Positions 1,772 to 31,656 of a stretch of 64,000 nt of DNA are shown here, piece after piece. The stretch is from the IMG/VR virus record IMGVR_UViG_2537561935_000012; one strand, 5' to 3'. The position numbers and the translations under genes were made by a program. Origin of the DNA: a virus. Lineage: Duplodnaviria; Heunggongvirae; Uroviricota; Caudoviricetes. Position 1 is the first letter of the stretch. Each line of letters starts with the position of its first letter. The notes below the pieces were generated by a model. That model was not told the DNA's origin and searched no databases. It was given only the letters and a program-made list of their open reading frames with translations.

Positions 1772-2964
1772 TAATCATCATCCCCGTATAGCTTGCGGGT
1801 AACTTCTTCGTCTTCCTCCTCGTCTTCGTCCAGGTCTTGTTCCAGCCATGGGTCGTTTGATACACCTTCAGTATCAACATCTCCATAACCGCCTGTATCA
1901 ACGATATCGGCGATTTCTTCCCTACGCTGCTCAATCCACAATGCGGCATCGGCGCGGCGGTTGGCGGCCCGTTCTCGCGCAACTTTGTCCAGATCTTCAA
2001 GAGAAGGGCCACCGACGGCTGTTTGCCTTTCCTCATCATCGGTATTGGTCTTAGGAGCACGCAGATCGGCTTTGATTTGCTCCAGCATCAGGGGCGGTAC
2101 TTTCCCTCCATGCGCCTCGATGAATTCAGCTGCCTCCAGCACTGACCAGTTGTTTTCACGCTTTCGTTCGTATGCCAGCTTAACAATGCCAGCTTGCCCC
2201 ATAGACAAAGCGTGCTTTTCCGCCTCCCGGCTTTCTTTTCGATAGTTATTCCGGATGCTGTAAATGGTGTTGATCAGGCTGCTTATCTGCGCGGAACAGC
2301 TGTTTAGCATGCTCGCGATACGGTATTCAGGCGGAGTTCCTTCATCATCGTCTTTTTGCTGATCGCGCATTTCCTGAACCAAGCGAATACACGTATCCCT
2401 GGCGTTCTCCAGCATAAGGAGATGAGAGAGAGACTTTTCCAGAAGAGTGGTTTCCAGAACATCAGCCCCGGACCGACGCAACATAGCGCGCGCGGCCTTC
2501 CGCGCTTCAACGTTATCTATCAGGTAATCGCCAGCTTCGAATTCAAAGCGTTCACCATCATCATCCAGGGTGTCGCGTTCCAGGCGATCACGTAAGGTCC
2601 GGTGGGCGCGGGTGATCACGTCATGATCATCAGAACGATCATTTATGCGCTTATTCTGGCGCTTCGCGTTCTCGACTGCGGCACTAACAACAGCATTAAC
2701 TCTTTGTTTTTCAGCCATTTCAGCCACAATGTGATCACCTGCACGTTGATCATTAGCGTGATCAATGATCATGCTTTTTAGTGGTTTTCTGACAGGCTTA
2801 TTTGGCTTACGGCTGTCCGCTGTTCCGGTGTCTTCTTTGAATGCACGGAGATAACGACGTGCGGTGTTTGGGTTGAGATTAAACTCGGCGGCATATTGTG
2901 CGATGGTGTAACCACCATCTCGCGCCAGGCGAGCAAAATTCTTCTTGTGATCGTCCCAGGTCAC
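1771..2964 (-). CDS. pacA: terminase small / pac-recognition subunit (PacA)
   Basis: 397-aa ORF, HTH-like N-terminus, acidic C-terminus; contains the pac hexamer arrays; 1-nt overlap with pacB. Confidence 0.85.
2585..2772 (-). promoter_or_regulatory. pac: pac packaging site: two clusters of TGATCA/CGATCA hexamers with GATC cores
   Basis: four hexamers at 2586-2641 and four at 2732-2771 flanking a ~90-bp spacer inside pacA. Confidence 0.75.
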
Positions 2965-3050
2965 TTATGCTTCCTTTCGTATAAAACTCTTTTTGACGCG
3001 AGGGTAACGAAAGTCACATGTCAAAAGGCCCGGAACGGGCAAGCAATCAA

Positions 3051-3503
3051 TCAGATACGTGCGGATGTGGCATTACCGTAATGACGGTGCTGACGGACCA
3101 CCTTATTGAAAAGTTGACGCGCCATCACCCAAGGCTGGTGCTCCCGGCGTTCCTTTTCGTCCTGCGTCATATAGAGTTCGTTCTGGAGTTTTTCATCAAA
3201 CCGGCGCGGAGCGCGGCTGCGGCGAAAGAATTCAGGATTCAGAGAGTGGATCTGAAATCTACGTGGGCGTGTACTGTCATCAATCAAAACAGACGAATAC
3301 TTAGACACAGCGATAGCCTTTAAGCGCAGATAAACATCGCGCTTATCGACATCCAGATGCGGGTATTCCTTTTCAAGAATTGCTGCAAGTTCTTTCGCTG
3401 ATAGAAGAGATTTAGTGCGGATCATGTAATCCGCAATCTCGTACGATGTTATTCGTGAGTGATTTATTTCCATGAAGTGGCGTCCCTGCCAGTTAAGTAA
3501 CAT
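3051..3503 (-). CDS. lpa: late promoter activator Lpa-like protein
   Basis: 150-aa ORF directly upstream of pacA, preceded by an operator-like site; assigned by synteny and size only. Confidence 0.5.
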   Translation of the reverse strand: MLLNWQGRHFMEINHSRITSYEIADYMIRTKSLLSAKELAAILEKEYPHLDVDKRDVYLRLKAIAVSKYSSVLIDDSTRPRRFQIHSLNPEFFRRSRAPRRFDEKLQNELYMTQDEKERREHQPWVMARQLFNKVVRQHRHYGNATSARI

Positions 3504-3573
3504 CCTGTCACCTACTGATTAGCCCATGTCAACTAATCAACGTGGAATATAATACCCTCGATTAAAGAAATAG

Positions 3574-27058: not shown

Positions 27059-27134
27059 TGGTGGCCCCTACCGGACTTGAACCGGTGACCGTGCGATTAT
27101 GAGTCGCCAGCTCTAACCACTGAGCTAAAGGGCC
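27059..27134 (-). tRNA. tRNA-Ile2/Met-like, anticodon CAU
   Basis: 76-nt cloverleaf; loop CTCATAA; GGTTCAAGTCC T-arm; encoded CCA; close to E. coli ileX. Confidence 0.85.
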
Positions 27135-27834: not shown

Positions 27835-28565
27835 TTATTAACCTCATTACTGGTTGGGAAATAAGGTTGCGGTGCCGGGTGCTTCCCGGTGTCCTTTAGC
27901 TGGTTATCCACCGTGGACGGGGAAATAAGGAGAAATAATGGACAGATATAACCATTTCCCCGCGTGCGCTTAGCCGCATTCACCGCAACGGAAAGAGCAT
28001 TCCTGGTGGACCTGTAGATTGGGATATGAACCCGTTACAGGAGAATGCTCTTACCTGTTACGTGCTCCGTTTCGTGGAGCTAACGGCGGGGGATCGGGCC
28101 GCACCAGACTGGACTTATTTCAGCGTTATGCTCATGCCAGAGAATCAAACTGTGATGGTCGGTGCTGAACTCCGACACAGGGTTGTAGCAAGCCCCGCAA
28201 AGCGCGCACTACTGTAGTTGCGGCACATCAGCCTGTGCATTCACCACAATGTTGAGAACACTGGTTGTCACGCTGCAACGCAACATTTATTCGTAGATTG
28301 GGATATGACCCCGTTACGCCAGTGTTCTCAACGTTGTAGTGCCGGTTACGGTTCCGGCCAGGCCTCTTCCTCAACGGGGTGTTCTCCATACGGACTACCG
28401 TTTATTGGTCGTTCCTGCGGTTTATGTTGTGAAGCCAGATGCTTATCTTCTGGTTGCTTCAAAGAGCTGCACTTCATCACAACGGTAAGGGTACTTCGTA
28501 GGGATTCGAACCCTCTGCCAAGCTCGGCGATCTCCGACGTCGCAAAATACCCTTACCTGTTGTGC

Positions 28566-28641
28566 TGGTGCCGATTAACGGACTCGAACCGCTGACATCC
28601 TGCTTACAAGGCAGGCGCTCTACCAACTGAGCTAAACCGGC
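28566..28641 (-). tRNA. tRNA-Thr, anticodon UGU
   Basis: 76 nt; D-arm GCTCAGTTGGTAGAGC; loop CTTGTAA; encoded CCA. Confidence 0.85.
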
Positions 28642-28643
28642 AT

Positions 28644-28719
28644 TGGCGATGGTGGATGGATTTGAACCATCGACCCGTTGATTAACAGTCAACCGCTCTA
28701 ACCGCTGAGCTACACCATC
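28644..28719 (-). tRNA. tRNA-Asn, anticodon GUU
   Basis: 76 nt; loop CTGTTAA; T-arm GGTTCAAATCC; encoded CCA; 2 nt from tRNA-Thr. Confidence 0.85.
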
Positions 28720-29384
28720 ACTTGCCGGGTACGTCTCCGGCGAGGGCTTCCACCTCCGTATGCTTTTCGGCGCACCGCGCCCTGGCTGCAATTCGGTAAC
28801 AGGGGATGCACAACCCTGGCTTCCAGCGTGATTAGCGCCTTCAGCATGACGGGATATACCCGTAAATTCGTGGAACTGTACCCAAAGTGCTGTTAAGCAC
28901 CGCTGTTACGCTGAAAAGAAAACGCAACAGGAAAGGACGCTGACCAACAGATGGCCCCTTCTCGTTCATCTGGTTAATCACACCAGCGCCCTTACCTGTT
29001 GTGCCTCCCCGTTCCCTAATACACAGACGGGGACACTCTGCGGTCGATTTTTTGACGGGGGACGACTCATACCCCGTGGCATCTGGCTTCTTAGGCCGCT
29101 ACCATCATCAGATCATCGTTTGCATTTACTTTAATGGTCAGTTTCTAAACCGCCGCAAAGTCGCTAACCATGACGAAAACCCTGAAAAAAACGCCCACCC
29201 GAAGATGGGCAAACTGGAAGCTCGTAACGCACTTCGGCGTTGCCACTTAGGCGCATGGTCAACCTGGCAACTCGGTGTTTTGTCTGGGAGGACTAGGCCC
29301 AGCCATGCTTACCGCCGCGCCTGTCGCGGCTAACAGCTAAATCGCTCTATAAATCACGATTCATTGAGGCGATATTACACTAAT

Positions 29385-29401
29385 AAATTTATTAGAGCAA
29401 T
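29385..29401. promoter_or_regulatory. C1 operator, perfect 17/17 match
   Basis: aaatttattagagcaat overlapping the dmt stop, at the head of the tRNA-tci-ban transcription unit. Confidence 0.75.
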
Positions 29402-31656
29402 ATACCCAAAACGTCATGAGCTACACCTCGAGTGTCCCCCTTACAAGACACAGAACGTCTGGCAAAAAGAGGTTCCACTCTGAAGCCACTGTCATGATAA
29501 AGCTCTCTGATGTTTGGCGCGCCACTGTTAGTAATGAGAACCTTTGCACCTCGACGATGAGCATCCGTCAACAGAGACACCAGGCGTTTTTGCTCTTCAA
29601 ACTTAAAGTCATGACCGGAATAGTTCGTGAATCCCTCTGTATTTGGAAGCGGTTCATACGGCGGATCGCAAAAGATGACATCTCCTTCTCCGGCAGCTTC
29701 AATCACCGCTGCAAAATCACCGCATACAAACTCAGACCGCCCTTCCGCACCGAGGAAGGCTTCCATCTCCTGTAATGGGAAATACGGAGTTTTATACTTC
29801 CCGTAACCGACATTGAACTCACCGGCCTGGTTGTAACGCGTCAATCCGTTAAAACAATGTCGGTTCAGGAACAAAAACGCCGCTGCGCGATGTAAATCAT
29901 CATAGACTTGTTTGTTAAACGCATTCCGTACTGCCAGGTATCCTTCCTGTGTGTTGTAGCCCTGGAAGAAACGATGCGCCAGTGTGATAAGTGAATGCGC
30001 CTCGCGTTGCAGAGTCTTGTAAAAGTTAATCAGGTCAGCATTCACATCATTTAGCAGATTTTCCTGGTATCCGGCATTCGTGAAGACAGCTCCGCCACCG
30101 ACAAAAGGTTCGATCAGGCGCTTCCCTTCTGGCAAATAGCGAAAGATTTGTTCCAGAACACCAAATTTTCCACCAGCCCATTTGAATATGGACCGTTCGA
30201 ATTCTGCCGCTGGTTTAACTTTTCGCTCTTTTGTTTCACTTCCTTCTTTCTGCCGACATACGGCCTTAGTAATCCGATCGCCAATCCAGCGCATTACTGG
30301 TATTGCCATACTATTGCCGATCGCTTTGTAACGCGGTCCGTCAGCTGCAAGCATCGCGGCCTCTTCTTCGCTTAAATATGGATAGTGATTGCGAAGATAT
30401 GCCAGTTCATCTGAATTAACTTTTTTACGCTTTTCCGTCGGGATCAACGTATGCCCATCAGGAAAACCTTGCAGCCTTTCACATTCGACAGGGGTAAGAC
30501 GGCGGACAGCTACTTCTGCGTTTCTTACTTCATAGCAAACAGCTGTTGGATTTTTAGCCATTAGAGATGGTGAAGTATTCTTAGTTGCAGCATGTTGTGT
30601 ACCGCTCATACGCTCAGGAAAAGCCAATGTAACAAGATGCTCATGGCTTTCTTGCTCACGTGCCCGCAATGTACCATGCCCTTCTGACCAAAAACCTGCT
30701 CCTGTGCTGCTAAAAACGGCAAGGTCAGTGGCATCTTTAAAATCTCTTGCCTTTACTGTCGATGCGGTTTCATCGTCAATATATTCCCCAAATGCTGCCA
30801 TCCTGAAAGCGTTTACGGCTTTCGTCGATTTCATACCGGGTGGCATGTCAGCGTGTAGGCATGGATTTAGGCTTTCGCCACTGATTGCAGCGCCATTTGC
30901 AATAATGGCGGAAGCGATTTCCTTCTTTTTTCGGCTCGGCGCAATATTCCGACGCACGCCTTCGAACTCAAAAAGTACCGTTGCGGGATCGAGGTCTGTT
31001 CGAGCACTTGCGACAACAAACACGCGTCGGCGTCGTTGTGCCACTCCGAAGTATTGGGCATCAAGGATTCTCCAGGCCACCTTTCGCTGCGGTCCATAAA
31101 TACAACCACACTGCGGCCACTTTGGAGCATGGCAACCGGTTTTGCCATCCCACCGCCAGAACGCGTTACTTTTTCCTGATTCAGGTCGATCACCTGGTTC
31201 AAATGGCGCATCTTCTCCAGCCAATCCGGCAAGGAAACATCCGAAGGCGTTATCTGCCGATGACAGGACTCCTGGGACATTTTCCCAGACGATAACTGTC
31301 GGTTTGAGGAAGGACTCAGACCGTTTGTCGTCAATTGCATTTGCAAGCTCCACATACTTCAAAGTTAGCGCGCCGCGTTCATCATCAAGCCCACCACGTA
31401 AGCCCGCGATACTGAATGCCTGACAAGGCGTACCCCCGACGAGCACATCAGGGGATTCGATTTCCCCAGCCAGGACTTTTTTGGCAAGTTTTGTCATGTC
31501 GCCAAGGTTGGAGACATGGGGCCAGCGGTGCGCAAGAACGGCAGATGGAAAAGGCTCGATTTCAGCAAACCACGCCGGACGCATACCCAACGGTTCCCAG
31601 GCAATACTCGCGGCTTCAATTCCACTGCAAACAGATCCATAGCACAGCTCTTTCAC
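29392..31656 (-). CDS. dmt: bifunctional DNA methyltransferase (C5-cytosine N-terminal, N6-adenine C-terminal)
   Basis: 754 aa; PCQ and ENV motifs in the N-terminal half; DPPY and FxGxG in the C-terminal half. Confidence 0.9.

Follow-up and report, generated by a model that had tools for sequence, protein, structure and literature searches.

The ban operon leader of phage P1 as a chain of structured RNA modules that includes a tmRNA-like tag module

tmRNA (SsrA), whose tag in E. coli is ANDENYALAA, is the nearest known system to one of the RNA modules described here, together with its two-piece permuted forms (Rfam RF04321, RF01849 and RF01850) and the CDS-less form of mycobacteriophage DS6A. 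The long hairpins described here come nearest to rRNA-operon leader-trailer stalks, T7 early RNase III sites, mitochondrial tRNA punctuation and the hairpin substrates of RNase P, which in E. coli include 4.5S RNA. Hairpin-like phage RNAs, namely P1/P7 C4 and phi80 M3, are also cut by E. coli RNase P (PMC5499578, PMC11143913). The STnc100/PasD prophage small RNAs (Rfam RF02076) occur in the same prophage neighbourhood as TerB-like genes (bioRxiv 10.64898/2026.05.13.724894). In the DicF/dicB operon leader of the E. coli Qin prophage, a precursor segment is followed by a terminator-ended small RNA position, an STnc100-like leader and a cell-division/TerB-type gene, an order that P1 shares.

The window, a stretch of 64,000 nucleotides, is the textbook phage P1 at 99.8% identity, and the P1 GenBank annotation was mapped onto it (window position = L001 coordinate + 26349). 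The 1.5 kb from the C1 operator to tciA in P1 is a string of structured RNA modules and not protein-coding sequence. We give a probability of about 55% to the reading that this interval, built as a chain of separable RNA modules with hairpin punctuation, makes up the non-coding 5' portion of the C1-repressed ban operon transcript on the minus strand. On the ban-sense strand, the order is Pban/Op72, a dicF-upstream homologue with a terminator, the tag module, hairpins and tRNAs, and an STnc100-like 5' UTR; the modules are separated by four long hairpins, D, C, B and A. An earlier note, made from the letters alone, had described a long untranslated leader with structured RNAs or pseudo-tRNAs on the operon strand. 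Its non-coding, structured character is supported by covariation, shuffle-tested folds and ORF loss, which agree, and all of its features are present, with coordinates 1-7 nt off. The word 'leader' undersells a chain of horizontally shuffled modules, and 'untranslated' may not hold strictly, since the short frame of one module looks translated as a tmRNA-type tag. Hairpin C (as a hairpin), hairpin D, the terminator at 29185-29211, the annotated ORFs upl and plp and the tag module at 29036-29171 were absent from that note. A literature search on P1 ban leader RNAs or tmRNA-like RNAs in enterobacterial phages returned nothing relevant.

The promoter-proximal part contains the following features.
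29371..29416, minus strand: Pban promoters with the bivalent C1 operator Oban (Op72), where leftward transcription of the ban operon begins (mapped P1 GenBank annotation)
29235..29329, minus strand: homologue of the ydfC-dicF spacer, the DicF precursor region of the E. coli Qin prophage (sequence homology)
29185..29211, minus strand: intrinsic terminator GCCCAUC-UUCG-GGUGGGC + U7, ~180 nt downstream of Pban (terminator scan)

The C1 operator ATTGCTCTAATAAATTT, previously placed at 29385, lies at ~29386-29402 and corresponds to the annotated P1 Oban/Op72. The spacer homologue overlaps most of the annotated 'dicF-like region' of P1 (29175-29276), and among 5426 E. coli genomes, 4415 have chromosomal sites that are ~78% identical to it over 95 nt; in K-12, the match is immediately 5' of DicF. 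Conservation does not extend to the DicF body: in P1, the Rfam DicF model (RF00039) gave no match at E <= 10, as against 76.7 bits for the K-12 control. The position that DicF occupies in Qin is taken in P1 by the terminator. This is conserved in every P1-like relative; in D6, one of them, homology with P1 starts exactly there. This terminator would yield a short Pban RNA unless read through. The segment from Pban to the terminator (29186-29330), folded alone and compared with shuffles, was uninformative (z = -0.97). Unlike Qin, P1 lacks a conserved DicF body and seed, and its terminator and STnc100-like leader are separated by ~1.3 kb of additional modules.

Downstream of the terminator are the tag module and its frame.
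29036..29171, minus strand: 135-nt tmRNA-like tag module, matched at full length by a covariance model from non-P1 phages
29091..29123, minus strand: ten-codon tag frame, GCA AAC GAT GAT CTG ATG ATG GTA GCG GCC TAA = ANDDLMMVAA-stop

The tag module starts at the GCGACUUUGC hairpin, with the motif GGUUUUCGUC just upstream (29172-29181), and continues through a conserved UUUAGAAACUGACC..AAAGUAAAU stretch, the tag frame, a tag-closing helix, hairpin H5 and a pseudoknot partner. The covariance model R1, built from non-P1 phages only, matched the window at 29036-29171 with 98.5 bits (E = 2.8e-19) over positions 1-135 of 135. The four helices of the module, including the pseudoknot between the H5 loop and a downstream segment, are 99% paired with 7 double-changed pairs, as compared with 34-52% pairing in slid controls; in the pseudoknot, both sides have changed in 2 of 4 pairs. 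The single-sequence fold was uninformative against shuffles (z = -0.82); the structure emerged only by comparative analysis. The tag frame has no start codon, resumes at GCA and ends in Ala plus a stop. It stops after exactly 10 codons in all 57 representative units, whereas the other two frames do not; among these units, its variation is greatest at third codon positions, codons 1, 2, 3, 9 and 10 show synonymous change, and all three stop codons are in use. The frame is apparently under peptide-level selection and, judged by this pattern of substitution, behaves as if translated.

The likeness to tmRNA extends beyond the frame length. The frame begins with GCA-AAC-GAY and ends in Ala-stop, the A-rich ..AUAAAU before the resume codon matches the tmRNA consensus context, the stop codon lies inside a helix that is followed by the covarying pseudoknot, the 5' motif GUUUUCGUC resembles the tmRNA motif GAUUCGAC, and the module sits among phage tRNA genes. 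However, no canonical tRNA-like domain was recognised: a neighbouring T-arm, a CCA in the sequence and a G3.U70 within an established acceptor are all missing. All Rfam scores are sub-threshold: in P1, tmRNA_permuted aligned the tag region with 24.1 bits (threshold 47) and beta_tmRNA scored 14.1 bits (threshold 84), and the best score of the relatives with the Rfam tmRNA models was 33.7 bits. These sub-threshold matches came only from permuted-type models, in five phage groups. ARAGORN in tmRNA mode called no tmRNA in 29 loci with tag units, and a scripted search around tag modules for a G3.U70 acceptor, T-arm and CCA was overwhelmed by genuine tRNAs and turned up no pattern shared between phage families. 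In addition, the phage tags end in MAA, VAA or AVA as opposed to the gammaproteobacterial YALAA, and several phages have a promoter immediately 5' of the GUUUUCG motif from which the RNA begins.

The tag module is present in ~630 phage records, where it is never annotated as RNA, and its carriers are lambdoid, T1-like, Felix O1-like, N4-like and Vi1-like phages and phage-plasmids. We tentatively consider it possible that P1 and at least 630 enterobacterial phages carry a tmRNA-derived RNA whose ten-codon tag (ANDD..MAA, ..VAA or ..LAVA) is translated onto nascent chains without a canonical tRNA-like domain. Such an RNA might be a new split tmRNA with an acceptor helix made from flanking stalk hairpins, it might borrow a tRNA-like partner in trans, or host SmpB-tmRNA might be diverted to a phage-specified tag that departs from the YALAA degron. 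Among the RNAs described here, this module is the novel lead and matters most: it is a conserved and apparently translated ssrA-like template, lacking a recognisable tRNA-like domain, in virulent as well as temperate phages. If true, phages would have an as yet undescribed means of manipulating ribosome rescue or protein tagging.

The central part of the interval holds the hairpins and the tRNAs; the fold z scores are for minus-strand RNA against dinucleotide shuffles.
28925..29001, minus strand: hairpin D, 18-bp arms CAACAGGUAAGGGCGCUG / CAGCGUCCUUUCCUGUUG, one copy of a 16-nt motif, z = -4.0
28644-28719, minus strand: tRNA-Asn(GUU), ARAGORN and Rfam, 74.5 bits
28566-28641, minus strand: tRNA-Thr(UGU), ARAGORN and Rfam, 72.9 bits
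28478..28564, minus strand: hairpin C, leader-trailer helix CACAAC-A-GGUAAGGG / CCCUUACC-GUUGUG, z = -4.8
28242..28341, minus strand: hairpin B, 23-bp arms, diverged family paralogue, z = -6.0
27984..28062, minus strand: hairpin A, family-type arms GGUAAGAGCAUUC / GAAUGCUCUUUCC, z = -7.9

The repeats on which the earlier note was built are found within these hairpins. A 25-nt motif, given there at 28014-28040 and 28294-28320, occurs at 28014-28038 and 28293-28317 (2 matches in 64 kb, with 0.00 expected from shuffles), and each copy is enclosed by one long hairpin, as claimed; the respective stems are 27990-28002/28043-28055 (13 nt, 92% complementary) and 28242-28264/28319-28341 (23 nt, 91% complementary). 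Inside hairpin A, the motif forms the sub-hairpin CCUGUA-ACGGGUUCAUAUCCCAAUC-UACAGG, and inside hairpin B it forms CGUA-ACGGGGUCAUAUCCCAAUC-UACG, next to a second sub-hairpin. The 16-nt motif CCCTTACCTGTTGTGC lies at 28550-28565 and 28989-29004 (2 matches, 0.04 expected; earlier 28551-28566 and 28996-29011), one copy in hairpin C and the other in hairpin D.

Hairpins A and C match a family pattern, GGUAAGRGYAUUN / NARUGCUCUUWCC, with U.G at arm position 11, the usual flanks CACAAC-A / GUUGUG and a variable interior, and B and D, which share the layout, are diverged paralogues. The arm consensus of this stalk family is GGUAAGAGCAUUG...CAGUGCUCUUUCC, usually extended by CACAAC/GUUGUG. The check for compensatory changes across relatives, which the earlier note had proposed, found many of them: the 53 distinct family arm pairs include numerous double changes, such as GAUAAUGGCAUUG/CAGUGCCAUUAUC, and in hairpin D the outer pairs of SJ46 and D6 have changed from C-G to U-A and from G.U to G-C. 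On the sense strand, G.U outnumbers A.C by 81 to 6 in the 53 arm pairs, indicating pairing at the RNA level on the tRNA/ban strand, and the family always has the orientation of the neighbouring tRNAs and tag module. The stalk hairpins are thus, on this comparative evidence, RNA-level structures of the sense strand. Several other identities were considered for them and rejected. A terminator scan found no U tract after hairpins A-D, as intrinsic terminators would have; the arms, as read, do not fit the RYYYAAC/GTTRRRY cores of integron attC sites; the hairpins are not like E. coli type I-E/I-F CRISPR repeats; and they lie downstream of the terminator, which does not suit an HK022 put-like antitermination RNA.

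Family hairpins stand directly after tRNA 3' ends, tR'-like terminators or small hairpins, and directly before tRNAs, the tag module or STnc100-like UTRs, a placement consistent with a punctuation role. The hairpins most likely act as processing 'punctuation'. As leader-trailer 'stalks', they would direct endonucleolytic processing, for which the candidate nucleases are RNase P (tRNA-like helices), RNase III (20-bp stems) or RNase E, and cleavage would free the tRNAs, small RNAs and the tci-ban mRNA from the read-through transcript. As with the known processing stalks, the long helices of P1 are formed by the flanks of a functional RNA, they stand between modules of a polycistronic transcript, and some family members enclose acceptor/T-arm-like minihelices. 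In contrast to those stalks, cleavage in the P1 family is predicted from sequence, the arms are conserved in sequence across unrelated phages and include a wobble and a mismatch, and the enclosed interior is hypervariable. With their conserved U.G wobble and U.U mismatch, the arms look like a recognition site for a specific factor, which the processing model does not name. The interiors are freely replaceable while the arms are conserved, and these hypervariable interiors could themselves carry the function, as small RNAs, instead of being inert loops. A further point against the processing model is the strong terminator 180 nt after Pban, as a consequence of which most Pban transcripts may never reach the hairpins unless read through.

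Apart from tRNA-Asn and tRNA-Thr, no tRNA is called in the interval, in agreement with the earlier count; ARAGORN called three tRNAs only in the whole window, none of them at 28486-28566. There, the earlier note had seen a 'pseudo-tRNA', which is hairpin C. The perfect T-arm that it reported is present (GGGTTCGAATCCC at 28501-28513, minus strand), and the 7-bp acceptor-like helix UAUUUUG/CGAAGUA directly adjoins it. Within the hairpin, this acceptor is combined with a D-like hairpin and the T-arm GAGGG-UUCGAAU-CCCUA, whose UUCRANY loop is followed by the 7-nt acceptor 3' strand paired to its 5' strand. An anticodon arm is lacking, and the 3' side, C-CCU, runs on as a trailer paired with the leader. 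The covariance-model scan did not call this segment a tRNA; the Rfam tRNA model gave no match even at E <= 10. The acceptor/T-arm minihelix inside hairpin C is therefore tRNA-like without being a tRNA. Several family interiors have the same canonical geometry of a 7-bp acceptor and a 5-bp T-arm. At the hairpin C site, P7 and Ro157 carry a different interior and RCS47 carries both interiors in tandem.

The 80 unique P1-like leaders fall into ~50 architectures, and the junctions of insertions and deletions, which involve tRNA-Tyr, a tRNA-Ser block, small ORF cargos and alternative interiors, coincide with the hairpins; in SJ46, a deletion runs precisely between the two 25-nt repeats. Module content is thus reshuffled at the hairpins, and the repeated arms may double as homologous-recombination joints through which cassettes are swapped between phages. 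The modules of the P1 leader are common to hundreds of enterobacterial phages: the same ones recur, in shuffled order, in the late leader between Q and holin of a lambdoid prophage and in T1-like, Felix O1-like, N4-like and Vi1-like phages. The P1 ban leader is thereby linked to the late-operon leaders of lambdoid and Shiga-toxin phages, the site of tRNAs and stx, and two RNA families come to light that Rfam does not contain and that carry no annotation in the phage records examined.

An alternative to a string of functional modules is evolutionary debris, in which decayed tRNA/tmRNA genes and recombination scars have no present function and the repeats persist through youth and horizontal spread. 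The failure of the tRNA-like fragments with tRNA models and the extreme presence/absence polymorphism would suit it, as would the P1 tag module, whose upstream family hairpin is missing. In addition, CRISPRi knock-down of trnT, plp, upl, tciABC and ban gave no plaque phenotype (PMC10695390), so the region is dispensable in the laboratory. Nevertheless, base pairing in the helices is maintained by compensatory changes in phage families that differ widely, synonymous change leaves the length and the terminal Ala of the tag frame untouched, virulent phages have their own promoters and terminators flanking the tag module, and 41-nt stretches that are 100% identical in unrelated phage families argue for constraint. 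On this balance, we consider debris unlikely.

A second alternative, which appears quite unlikely, is a specific version of the tmRNA relationship: a split, permuted tmRNA, with tag module and family hairpins as the parts of one phage RNA for trans-translation. The 3' arm CAGUGCU-CUUUCC-AGUUUUCGUC adjoining the module would be the homologue of the tmRNA 5' end GGGGCUG-AUUCUG-GAUUCGAC, the 5' arm ..AGCAUUG-A would provide the acceptor 3' strand and discriminator, the variable interior would be an excised intervening segment, and the wobble would be G3.U70, the alanine identity pair; once processed and CCA-added, the two-piece RNA would accept alanine and add ANDD..AA or ..LAVA to stalled nascent chains. 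This arrangement would account for the translated behaviour of the frame, the tmRNA-like resume-codon context and pseudoknot 3' of the tag, and the exclusive matches to permuted-type models. It also accords with the hairpins themselves, in which the 3' arm adjoins the GUUUUCG motif in at least 34 of 57 units, the U.G wobble is kept in 35 of 53 arm pairs while the outer positions covary, and the nucleotide after the 5' arm is mostly A. However, the putative acceptor 3' strand has no T-arm beside it and no encoded CCA, the helix extends for 13-20 bp, and ARAGORN called none of the units a tmRNA. T1-like and Felix O1-like phages have a sigma70 promoter right at the GUUUUCG motif, leaving no acceptor strand at all; the Kuttervirus hairpin is without a wobble at that place; and in P1 itself the upstream family hairpin is replaced by the terminator. 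Furthermore, the 5-bp core CAUUG/CAGUG is symmetric, so that the wobble is third from either end, and a standard-order reading gives U3.G70, which AlaRS is not known to accept.

We also considered a DNA-level element, with the inverted repeats as the ends of a miniature mobile element or as recombinase/nuclease sites. Conserved terminal inverted repeats around a variable interior, promiscuous spread over unrelated phage families and deletions between repeats are features that such an element would show, as is an HNH endonuclease ORF, which one array contains. It is nonetheless very unlikely, given the strong asymmetry of G.U over A.C on one strand only, the constant orientation with the neighbouring tRNAs and tag module, flanks that are themselves complementary with no target-site duplications seen, and no associated transposase or integrase.

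Since 2004, the interval has been annotated with two hypothetical proteins and a 'dicF-like region'. The two annotated ORFs are on the opposite strand.
28026-28217, plus strand: ORF upl (P1 GenBank annotation), judged spurious
28218-28595, plus strand: ORF plp (P1 GenBank annotation), TTG start, overlaps tRNA-Thr, judged spurious

Among 83 unique close relatives with 95-99% DNA identity, upl is intact in 51 and plp in 31, plp being otherwise split across frames, stopped or deleted; Pfam has no family for either, and the NCBI/RefSeq annotation pipeline places no CDS there in hundreds of P1-like E. coli plasmids. They are not conserved genes, and the repeats, for which the earlier note had allowed a place inside a real conserved protein gene, do not lie in one; reading the interval as RNA modules removes two probably spurious genes. 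That upl and plp are real genes as in GenBank and that the repeats are a duplicated N-terminal coding segment VDWDM[NT]PL is highly improbable: both 25-nt motif copies are in frame with an ATG, the ORFs are annotated in P1, RCS47 and JL22, and the P1 record carries predicted upl promoters, but the ORFs are so often disrupted, plp overlaps a tRNA from a TTG start, Pfam has no family for them, RefSeq calls no CDS there in P1-like plasmids, and P7 and D6 carry a tRNA block instead of the region.

The remaining parts of the interval are spacers, a cargo segment and the tciA 5' UTR.
28720..28924, minus strand: spacer S2, conserved, with the small hairpin ACGGG-UAUAU-CCCGU
28342..28477, minus strand: spacer S3, nearly invariant among P1-likes (alignment)
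28056..28241, minus strand: cargo segment S4, ending in CCCCCGCCGUUAGCUCCACGA and then the small hairpin GCUCC-ACGAAAC-GGAGC
27835..27987, minus strand: tciA 5' UTR, with the long-range helix UGCGGUG...CACCGCA around an STnc100-like domain

The first ~60 nt of S2 are replaced in some relatives, and the part 28426-28491 of S3 is common to Klebsiella phage-plasmids. The end of S4, CCCCCGCCGUUAGCUCCACGA, resembles the 3' end of E. coli tmRNA, and in P7 and D6, S4 is swapped for a block with a non-canonical tRNA-Ser(UGA). The tciA 5' UTR resembles the STnc100/PasD small RNAs in its outer helix UGGUG..CACCA, its GGUGAAU motif and its CACCGGGAGGCACCCGG hairpin. It differs from them in being a cis leader of tciA, not a free-standing sRNA, and in its partial, sub-threshold match to Rfam STnc100 (33.4 bits, E = 6.6e-5, threshold 47, model positions 31-147 only). 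In E. coli K-12, dicB has a leader of this type, with an STnc100 score of 34.4 bits.

The two GenBank P1 genomes were 99.7-99.8% identical to the query interval, and coordinates of the P1 record (L001) become window coordinates by adding 26349. The locus is thus known already, and the part flagged in the earlier note is annotated, but as protein rather than RNA. The record lists the following features:

~29371-29416, Pban/Oban (Op72), the C1-controlled promoter/operator
29175-29276, minus strand, 'dicF-like region'
28644-28719, trnA, tRNA-Asn
28566-28641, trnT, tRNA-Thr
28218-28595, plus strand, plp, a predicted ORF with a TTG start that overlaps trnT
28026-28217, plus strand, upl, a predicted ORF
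from 27834 leftward, tciA

Two RNA families in this interval, that of the hairpins and that of the tag module, appear to be undescribed. A third operon tRNA (27059-27134) is tRNA-Met(CAU) according to ARAGORN and tRNA-Ile2 (ileX-like) in the P1 record; the latter, with a CAU anticodon, would require lysidine modification.

To compare the leaders, we used 83 unique sequences (80 from IMG/VR P1-like elements plus GenBank phages). Full-length, uninterrupted plp was found in 31 of them, the other copies being split over frames (30), stopped (9), partial (10) or absent (3), and upl was intact in 51. Neither has a Pfam family, and in hundreds of P1-like E. coli plasmids annotated by RefSeq this stretch has only tRNA-Thr or nothing. 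Most of upl is exchanged for a tRNA-containing block in P7 and D6, and the Salmonella phage SJ46 (L005) lacks exactly the 279 nt between two copies of a 25-nt motif (28021-28300), so that upl is gone entirely and plp loses its start; this gap looks like recombination between the repeats. In addition, CRISPRi knock-downs of plp and upl gave no phenotype (PMC10695390). From these lines of evidence we take both ORFs to be artefacts of annotation in non-coding DNA of balanced GC content, in agreement with the earlier claim that the leader is not protein-coding. We put the probability that the interval is non-coding structured RNA at about 85%.

The 25-nt motif reported in the earlier note is present twice (28014-28038 and 28293-28317; 0 expected), as is its 16-nt motif (28550-28565 and 28989-29004; 0.04 expected), and the minus strand has the T-arm sequence GGGTTCGAATCCC at 28501-28513. 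The paired stem-loops exist, and inverted repeats give four of them, not two:

27984-28062, minus-strand RNA, hairpin A, fold z = -7.9
28242-28341, minus-strand RNA, hairpin B, fold z = -6.0
28478-28564, minus-strand RNA, hairpin C, fold z = -4.8
28925-29001, minus-strand RNA, hairpin D, fold z = -4.0

These hairpins are paralogues of one another. Each opens with (CA)CAAC-A-GGUAAG.., a start that has diverged in B, closes with ..CUUWCC-(U)GUUG and is followed by GUUGYGRUGAAUGC-type sequence. The 16-nt motif is the 3' arm common to C and D, and the 25-nt motif is a sub-hairpin within A and B, which a third interior variant retains with a compensatory change (CGUG-ACGGGCCCAUAACCCAAUC-CACG). What had been taken for a pseudo-tRNA is the interior of hairpin C, which does hold a tRNA-like minihelix. 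Between B and A, the end of the cargo segment S4 (28056-28100, minus strand) reads GGUGCGGCCCGAUCCCCCGCCGUUAGCUCCACGA, resembling the E. coli tmRNA 3' end GCGGGUUCAACUCCCGCCAGCUCCACCA; after it comes the hairpin GCUCC-ACGAAAC-GGAGC, found again on the 5' side of many family hairpins.

An arm-consensus pattern scan of IMG/VR gave more than 120 contigs among the matches listed, most of them ~40 kb, the size of lambdoid phages. By BLAST, the 3' arm plus downstream motif was found in 176 of 50,697 phage records, including lambdoids (HK633, HK629, mEp460, Stx2 phages), T1-like Klebsiella/E. coli phages, Taipeivirus, and Erwinia, Hafnia and Cronobacter phages. Between near-identical arms lie more than 70 distinct interiors of 53-98 nt. 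In 53 distinct arm pairs, the helix is kept by many double changes (GAUAAUGGCAUUG/CAGUGCCAUUAUC, GGUAAGCUGCUUG/CAGGCAGCUUUCC), and G.U exceeds A.C by 81 to 6, a ratio still lopsided without the invariant wobble position. Since this excess is expected only if the sense strand, that of the tRNAs, folds as RNA, these are sense-strand RNA helices under selection. Non-Watson-Crick positions are conserved as well, namely U.U at arm position 3 (31/53) and U.G at position 11 (35/53). Their 5' neighbour is the 3' end of a tRNA, a terminator like tR' or a small hairpin of 5 bp, and their 3' neighbour is GUUGUGGUGAAUGC with a small covarying hairpin (GCGCAGGCUGAUGCGC / GCACAGGCUGAUGUGC), a tRNA, an STnc100-like leader or the tag module.

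Modules are shuffled at these helices: P1-like leaders have ~50 architectures, with indels that join at hairpins and carry tRNA-Tyr, a tRNA-Thr variant with a 60-nt insert, an HNH ORF, a ~140-aa ORF or alternative C interiors; the RCS47 leader has one extra cassette. In one lambdoid prophage of a bacterial chromosome, these elements also take up the 1.1-kb gap from the Q antiterminator to holin (PR'/6S-tR', a P7-type hairpin, the tag module and another hairpin), which relates the P1 ban leader to the late leader of lambdoid phages, the place of tRNAs and stx in Stx phages.

Several individual leaders deserve mention. P7 (L006 938-1024) and D6 (L007 1338-1424) have a non-canonical 87-nt tRNA-Ser(UGA) in place of P1 28056-28241, annotated in D6 as 'AA not called by tRNAscan-SE'. 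The same element lies in the Asn-Tyr-Thr-Ser tRNA array of the phage-plasmid CMS-2020a (L126 2723-2809), where it is tRNA-Sec-like in Rfam (44.6 bits, below threshold) and accompanied by the same hairpin remnants. Such ~110-kb non-P1 phage-plasmids (CMS-2020a, 2700-3550; Klebsiella) have pieces of the P1 leader, 28041-28331 at 92% and 28426-28491 at 95%. In the P1-like contig L074, a ~600-nt HNH-endonuclease ORF interrupts tRNA-Thr after the anticodon arm, between tRNA-Asn and hairpin C; the contig L105 has at the tRNA-Thr position a tRNA-like gene whose anticodon region holds a ~60-nt insert, which may reflect an intron or a chimera. At the S4 position, L105 and a third contig, L112, carry a 458-605-nt cargo with an ORF of ~140 codons and its own terminator-like hairpin, indicating that protein-coding cassettes use the array too.

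On the promoter-proximal side, a counterpart of P1 29235-29329 (~78% identity) occurs in 4415 of 5426 E. coli genomes; in K-12 it is the ydfC-dicF spacer. The DicF body gave no Rfam match in P1 (K-12 control, 76.7 bits), and a strong intrinsic terminator (29185-29211) lies after Pban at the DicF-equivalent place, so that Pban transcripts would stop after ~180 nt without read-through. STnc100-like leaders, both below threshold, precede dicB after DicF in K-12 (34.4 bits) and tciA after hairpin A in P1 (33.4 bits). The P1 interval therefore resembles the K-12 dicB locus in the precursor segment and the STnc100-like leader, but differs in that the DicF body is not conserved; it looks like a dicB-type operon leader with ~1.3 kb of inserted RNA cassettes. 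The K-12 dicB 5' leader (L127 2671-2880, dicF-dicB gap) lies directly 3' of the DicF terminator and begins with the GUGGUGAAUGCGGCUGAGCGCACGC motif, as does the sequence after P1 hairpin A; the likeness suggests that dicB and tciA have a common cis-regulatory leader type.

Once C1 is inactivated, those Pban transcripts that read through the terminator would be cut at the stalk hairpins, the candidate nucleases being RNase P (tRNA-like helices), RNase III (20-bp stems) or RNase E, and the cuts would release tRNA-Asn, tRNA-Thr, the tag RNA and the tci-ban mRNA. Phage RNAs that resemble hairpins, P1 C4 and phi80 M3 among them, are cut by E. coli RNase P (PMC5499578, PMC11143913). We hold this processing role tentatively, at slightly under even odds. 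Cassettes may be exchanged by homologous recombination through the repeated arms.

The segment 29012-29185 is conserved well outside the P1-likes. It contains, at 29123-29091, the frame GCA AAC GAT GAT CTG ATG ATG GTA GCG GCC TAA (ANDDLMMVAA-stop), preceded by ..AAAGUAAAU, and Rfam permuted-tmRNA models align this stretch to their own tag region (P1 24 bits, relatives up to 34, all below threshold). Among 57 representative units, drawn from at least six phage groups, this frame always closes after exactly ten codons, by TAA, TAG or TGA, and the other two frames vary. The third codon position is the most variable (entropy 0.97 vs 0.61 and 0.44), with synonymous changes at codons 1-3 and 9-10 (GCA/GCT, AAC/AAT, GAT/GAC, GCG/GCT, GCC/GCG/GCT), and the 24 nt 5' of the frame are near-invariant. 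The peptides include ANDDVVLMAA, ANDDLMLMAA, ANDEQFLAVA, ANDNTFLAVA, ANEEMYLAVA, ANEERFLMAA and ANSDQYLAVA. The pattern is that of a tmRNA template and not of an untranslated RNA; it is not that of an ordinary ORF either, as the frame has no start codon or Shine-Dalgarno sequence.

Three elements follow the tag:

element 1, a helix closing the tag end
element 2, hairpin H5
element 3, a pseudoknot of the H5 loop with the next segment (CCGA/UCGG, CCAG/CUGG, CCAA/UUGG; P1 GUCG/CGAC)

Their pairing reached 99% in 26 diverse sequences, against 34-52% in slid controls, and both partners had changed in 7 of the pairs. We regard the tmRNA-type tag frame with its pseudoknot as shown. A covariance model from which P1-like sequences had been left out matched P1 29036-29171 at full length (98.5 bits, E = 2.8e-19). 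By BLAST, the module occurs in 630 phage records, including Kuttervirus, Taipeivirus, Felixounavirus, N4-like phages (Schitoviridae), T1-like phages, lambdoids and P1-likes, and the annotation beneath the matches is without exception 'none' or a tiny hypothetical ORF. Its own sigma70 promoter (T1-like Bas80, Felix O1-like AYO145A) or terminator (Pollock, L182) makes it an independent RNA gene in these carriers. The current paper on the tmRNA database counts 79 tmRNAs from phages and has a tRNA-like form lacking a CDS, but nothing resembling the module (PMC11915505), and we found no published description within an incomplete literature coverage. That the tag serves trans-translation-like tagging somewhere within the family is possible, at roughly one chance in three, and use of P1's own copy would be less probable still.

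A search for a tRNA-like domain in the module found none, and ARAGORN made no tmRNA call in any unit. We keep as a minority rival a split tmRNA, in which the stalk-hairpin arms would form the acceptor of the tag RNA: the 3' arm adjoins the module in at least 34 of 57 units, CAGUGCU-CUUUCC-AGUUUUCGUC aligns with the tmRNA 5' end GGGGCUG-AUUCUG-GAUUCGAC, and a circularly permuted reading turns the conserved wobble into G3.U70 with a discriminator that is mostly A. It ranks no higher because no T-arm adjoins, CCA is not encoded, the helix extends 13-20 bp, the strand is wholly absent in promoter-proximal units, Kuttervirus lacks the wobble, and in P1 a terminator sits at the hairpin's place.

Other tRNA-like elements, missed by ARAGORN, lie near the module. 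In AYO145A (L238 ~864-948), a gene without a D-arm, ~130 nt 3' of the module, reads CGGGGCG..GCGGU-CUUCUAA-ACCGC..GCGGG-UUCGAGU-CCUGC-CGCCUCG-ACCA; it has the alanine identity elements G3.U70, A73 and encoded CCA, yet a UCU anticodon loop. Kuttervirus Maynard (L237 ~540-575, 960-990, 1075-1110) has three T-arm elements around the module, one of which ends ..GGGUUCGACUCCCUAAAACGGCUCCAC, resembling a tmRNA 3' end.
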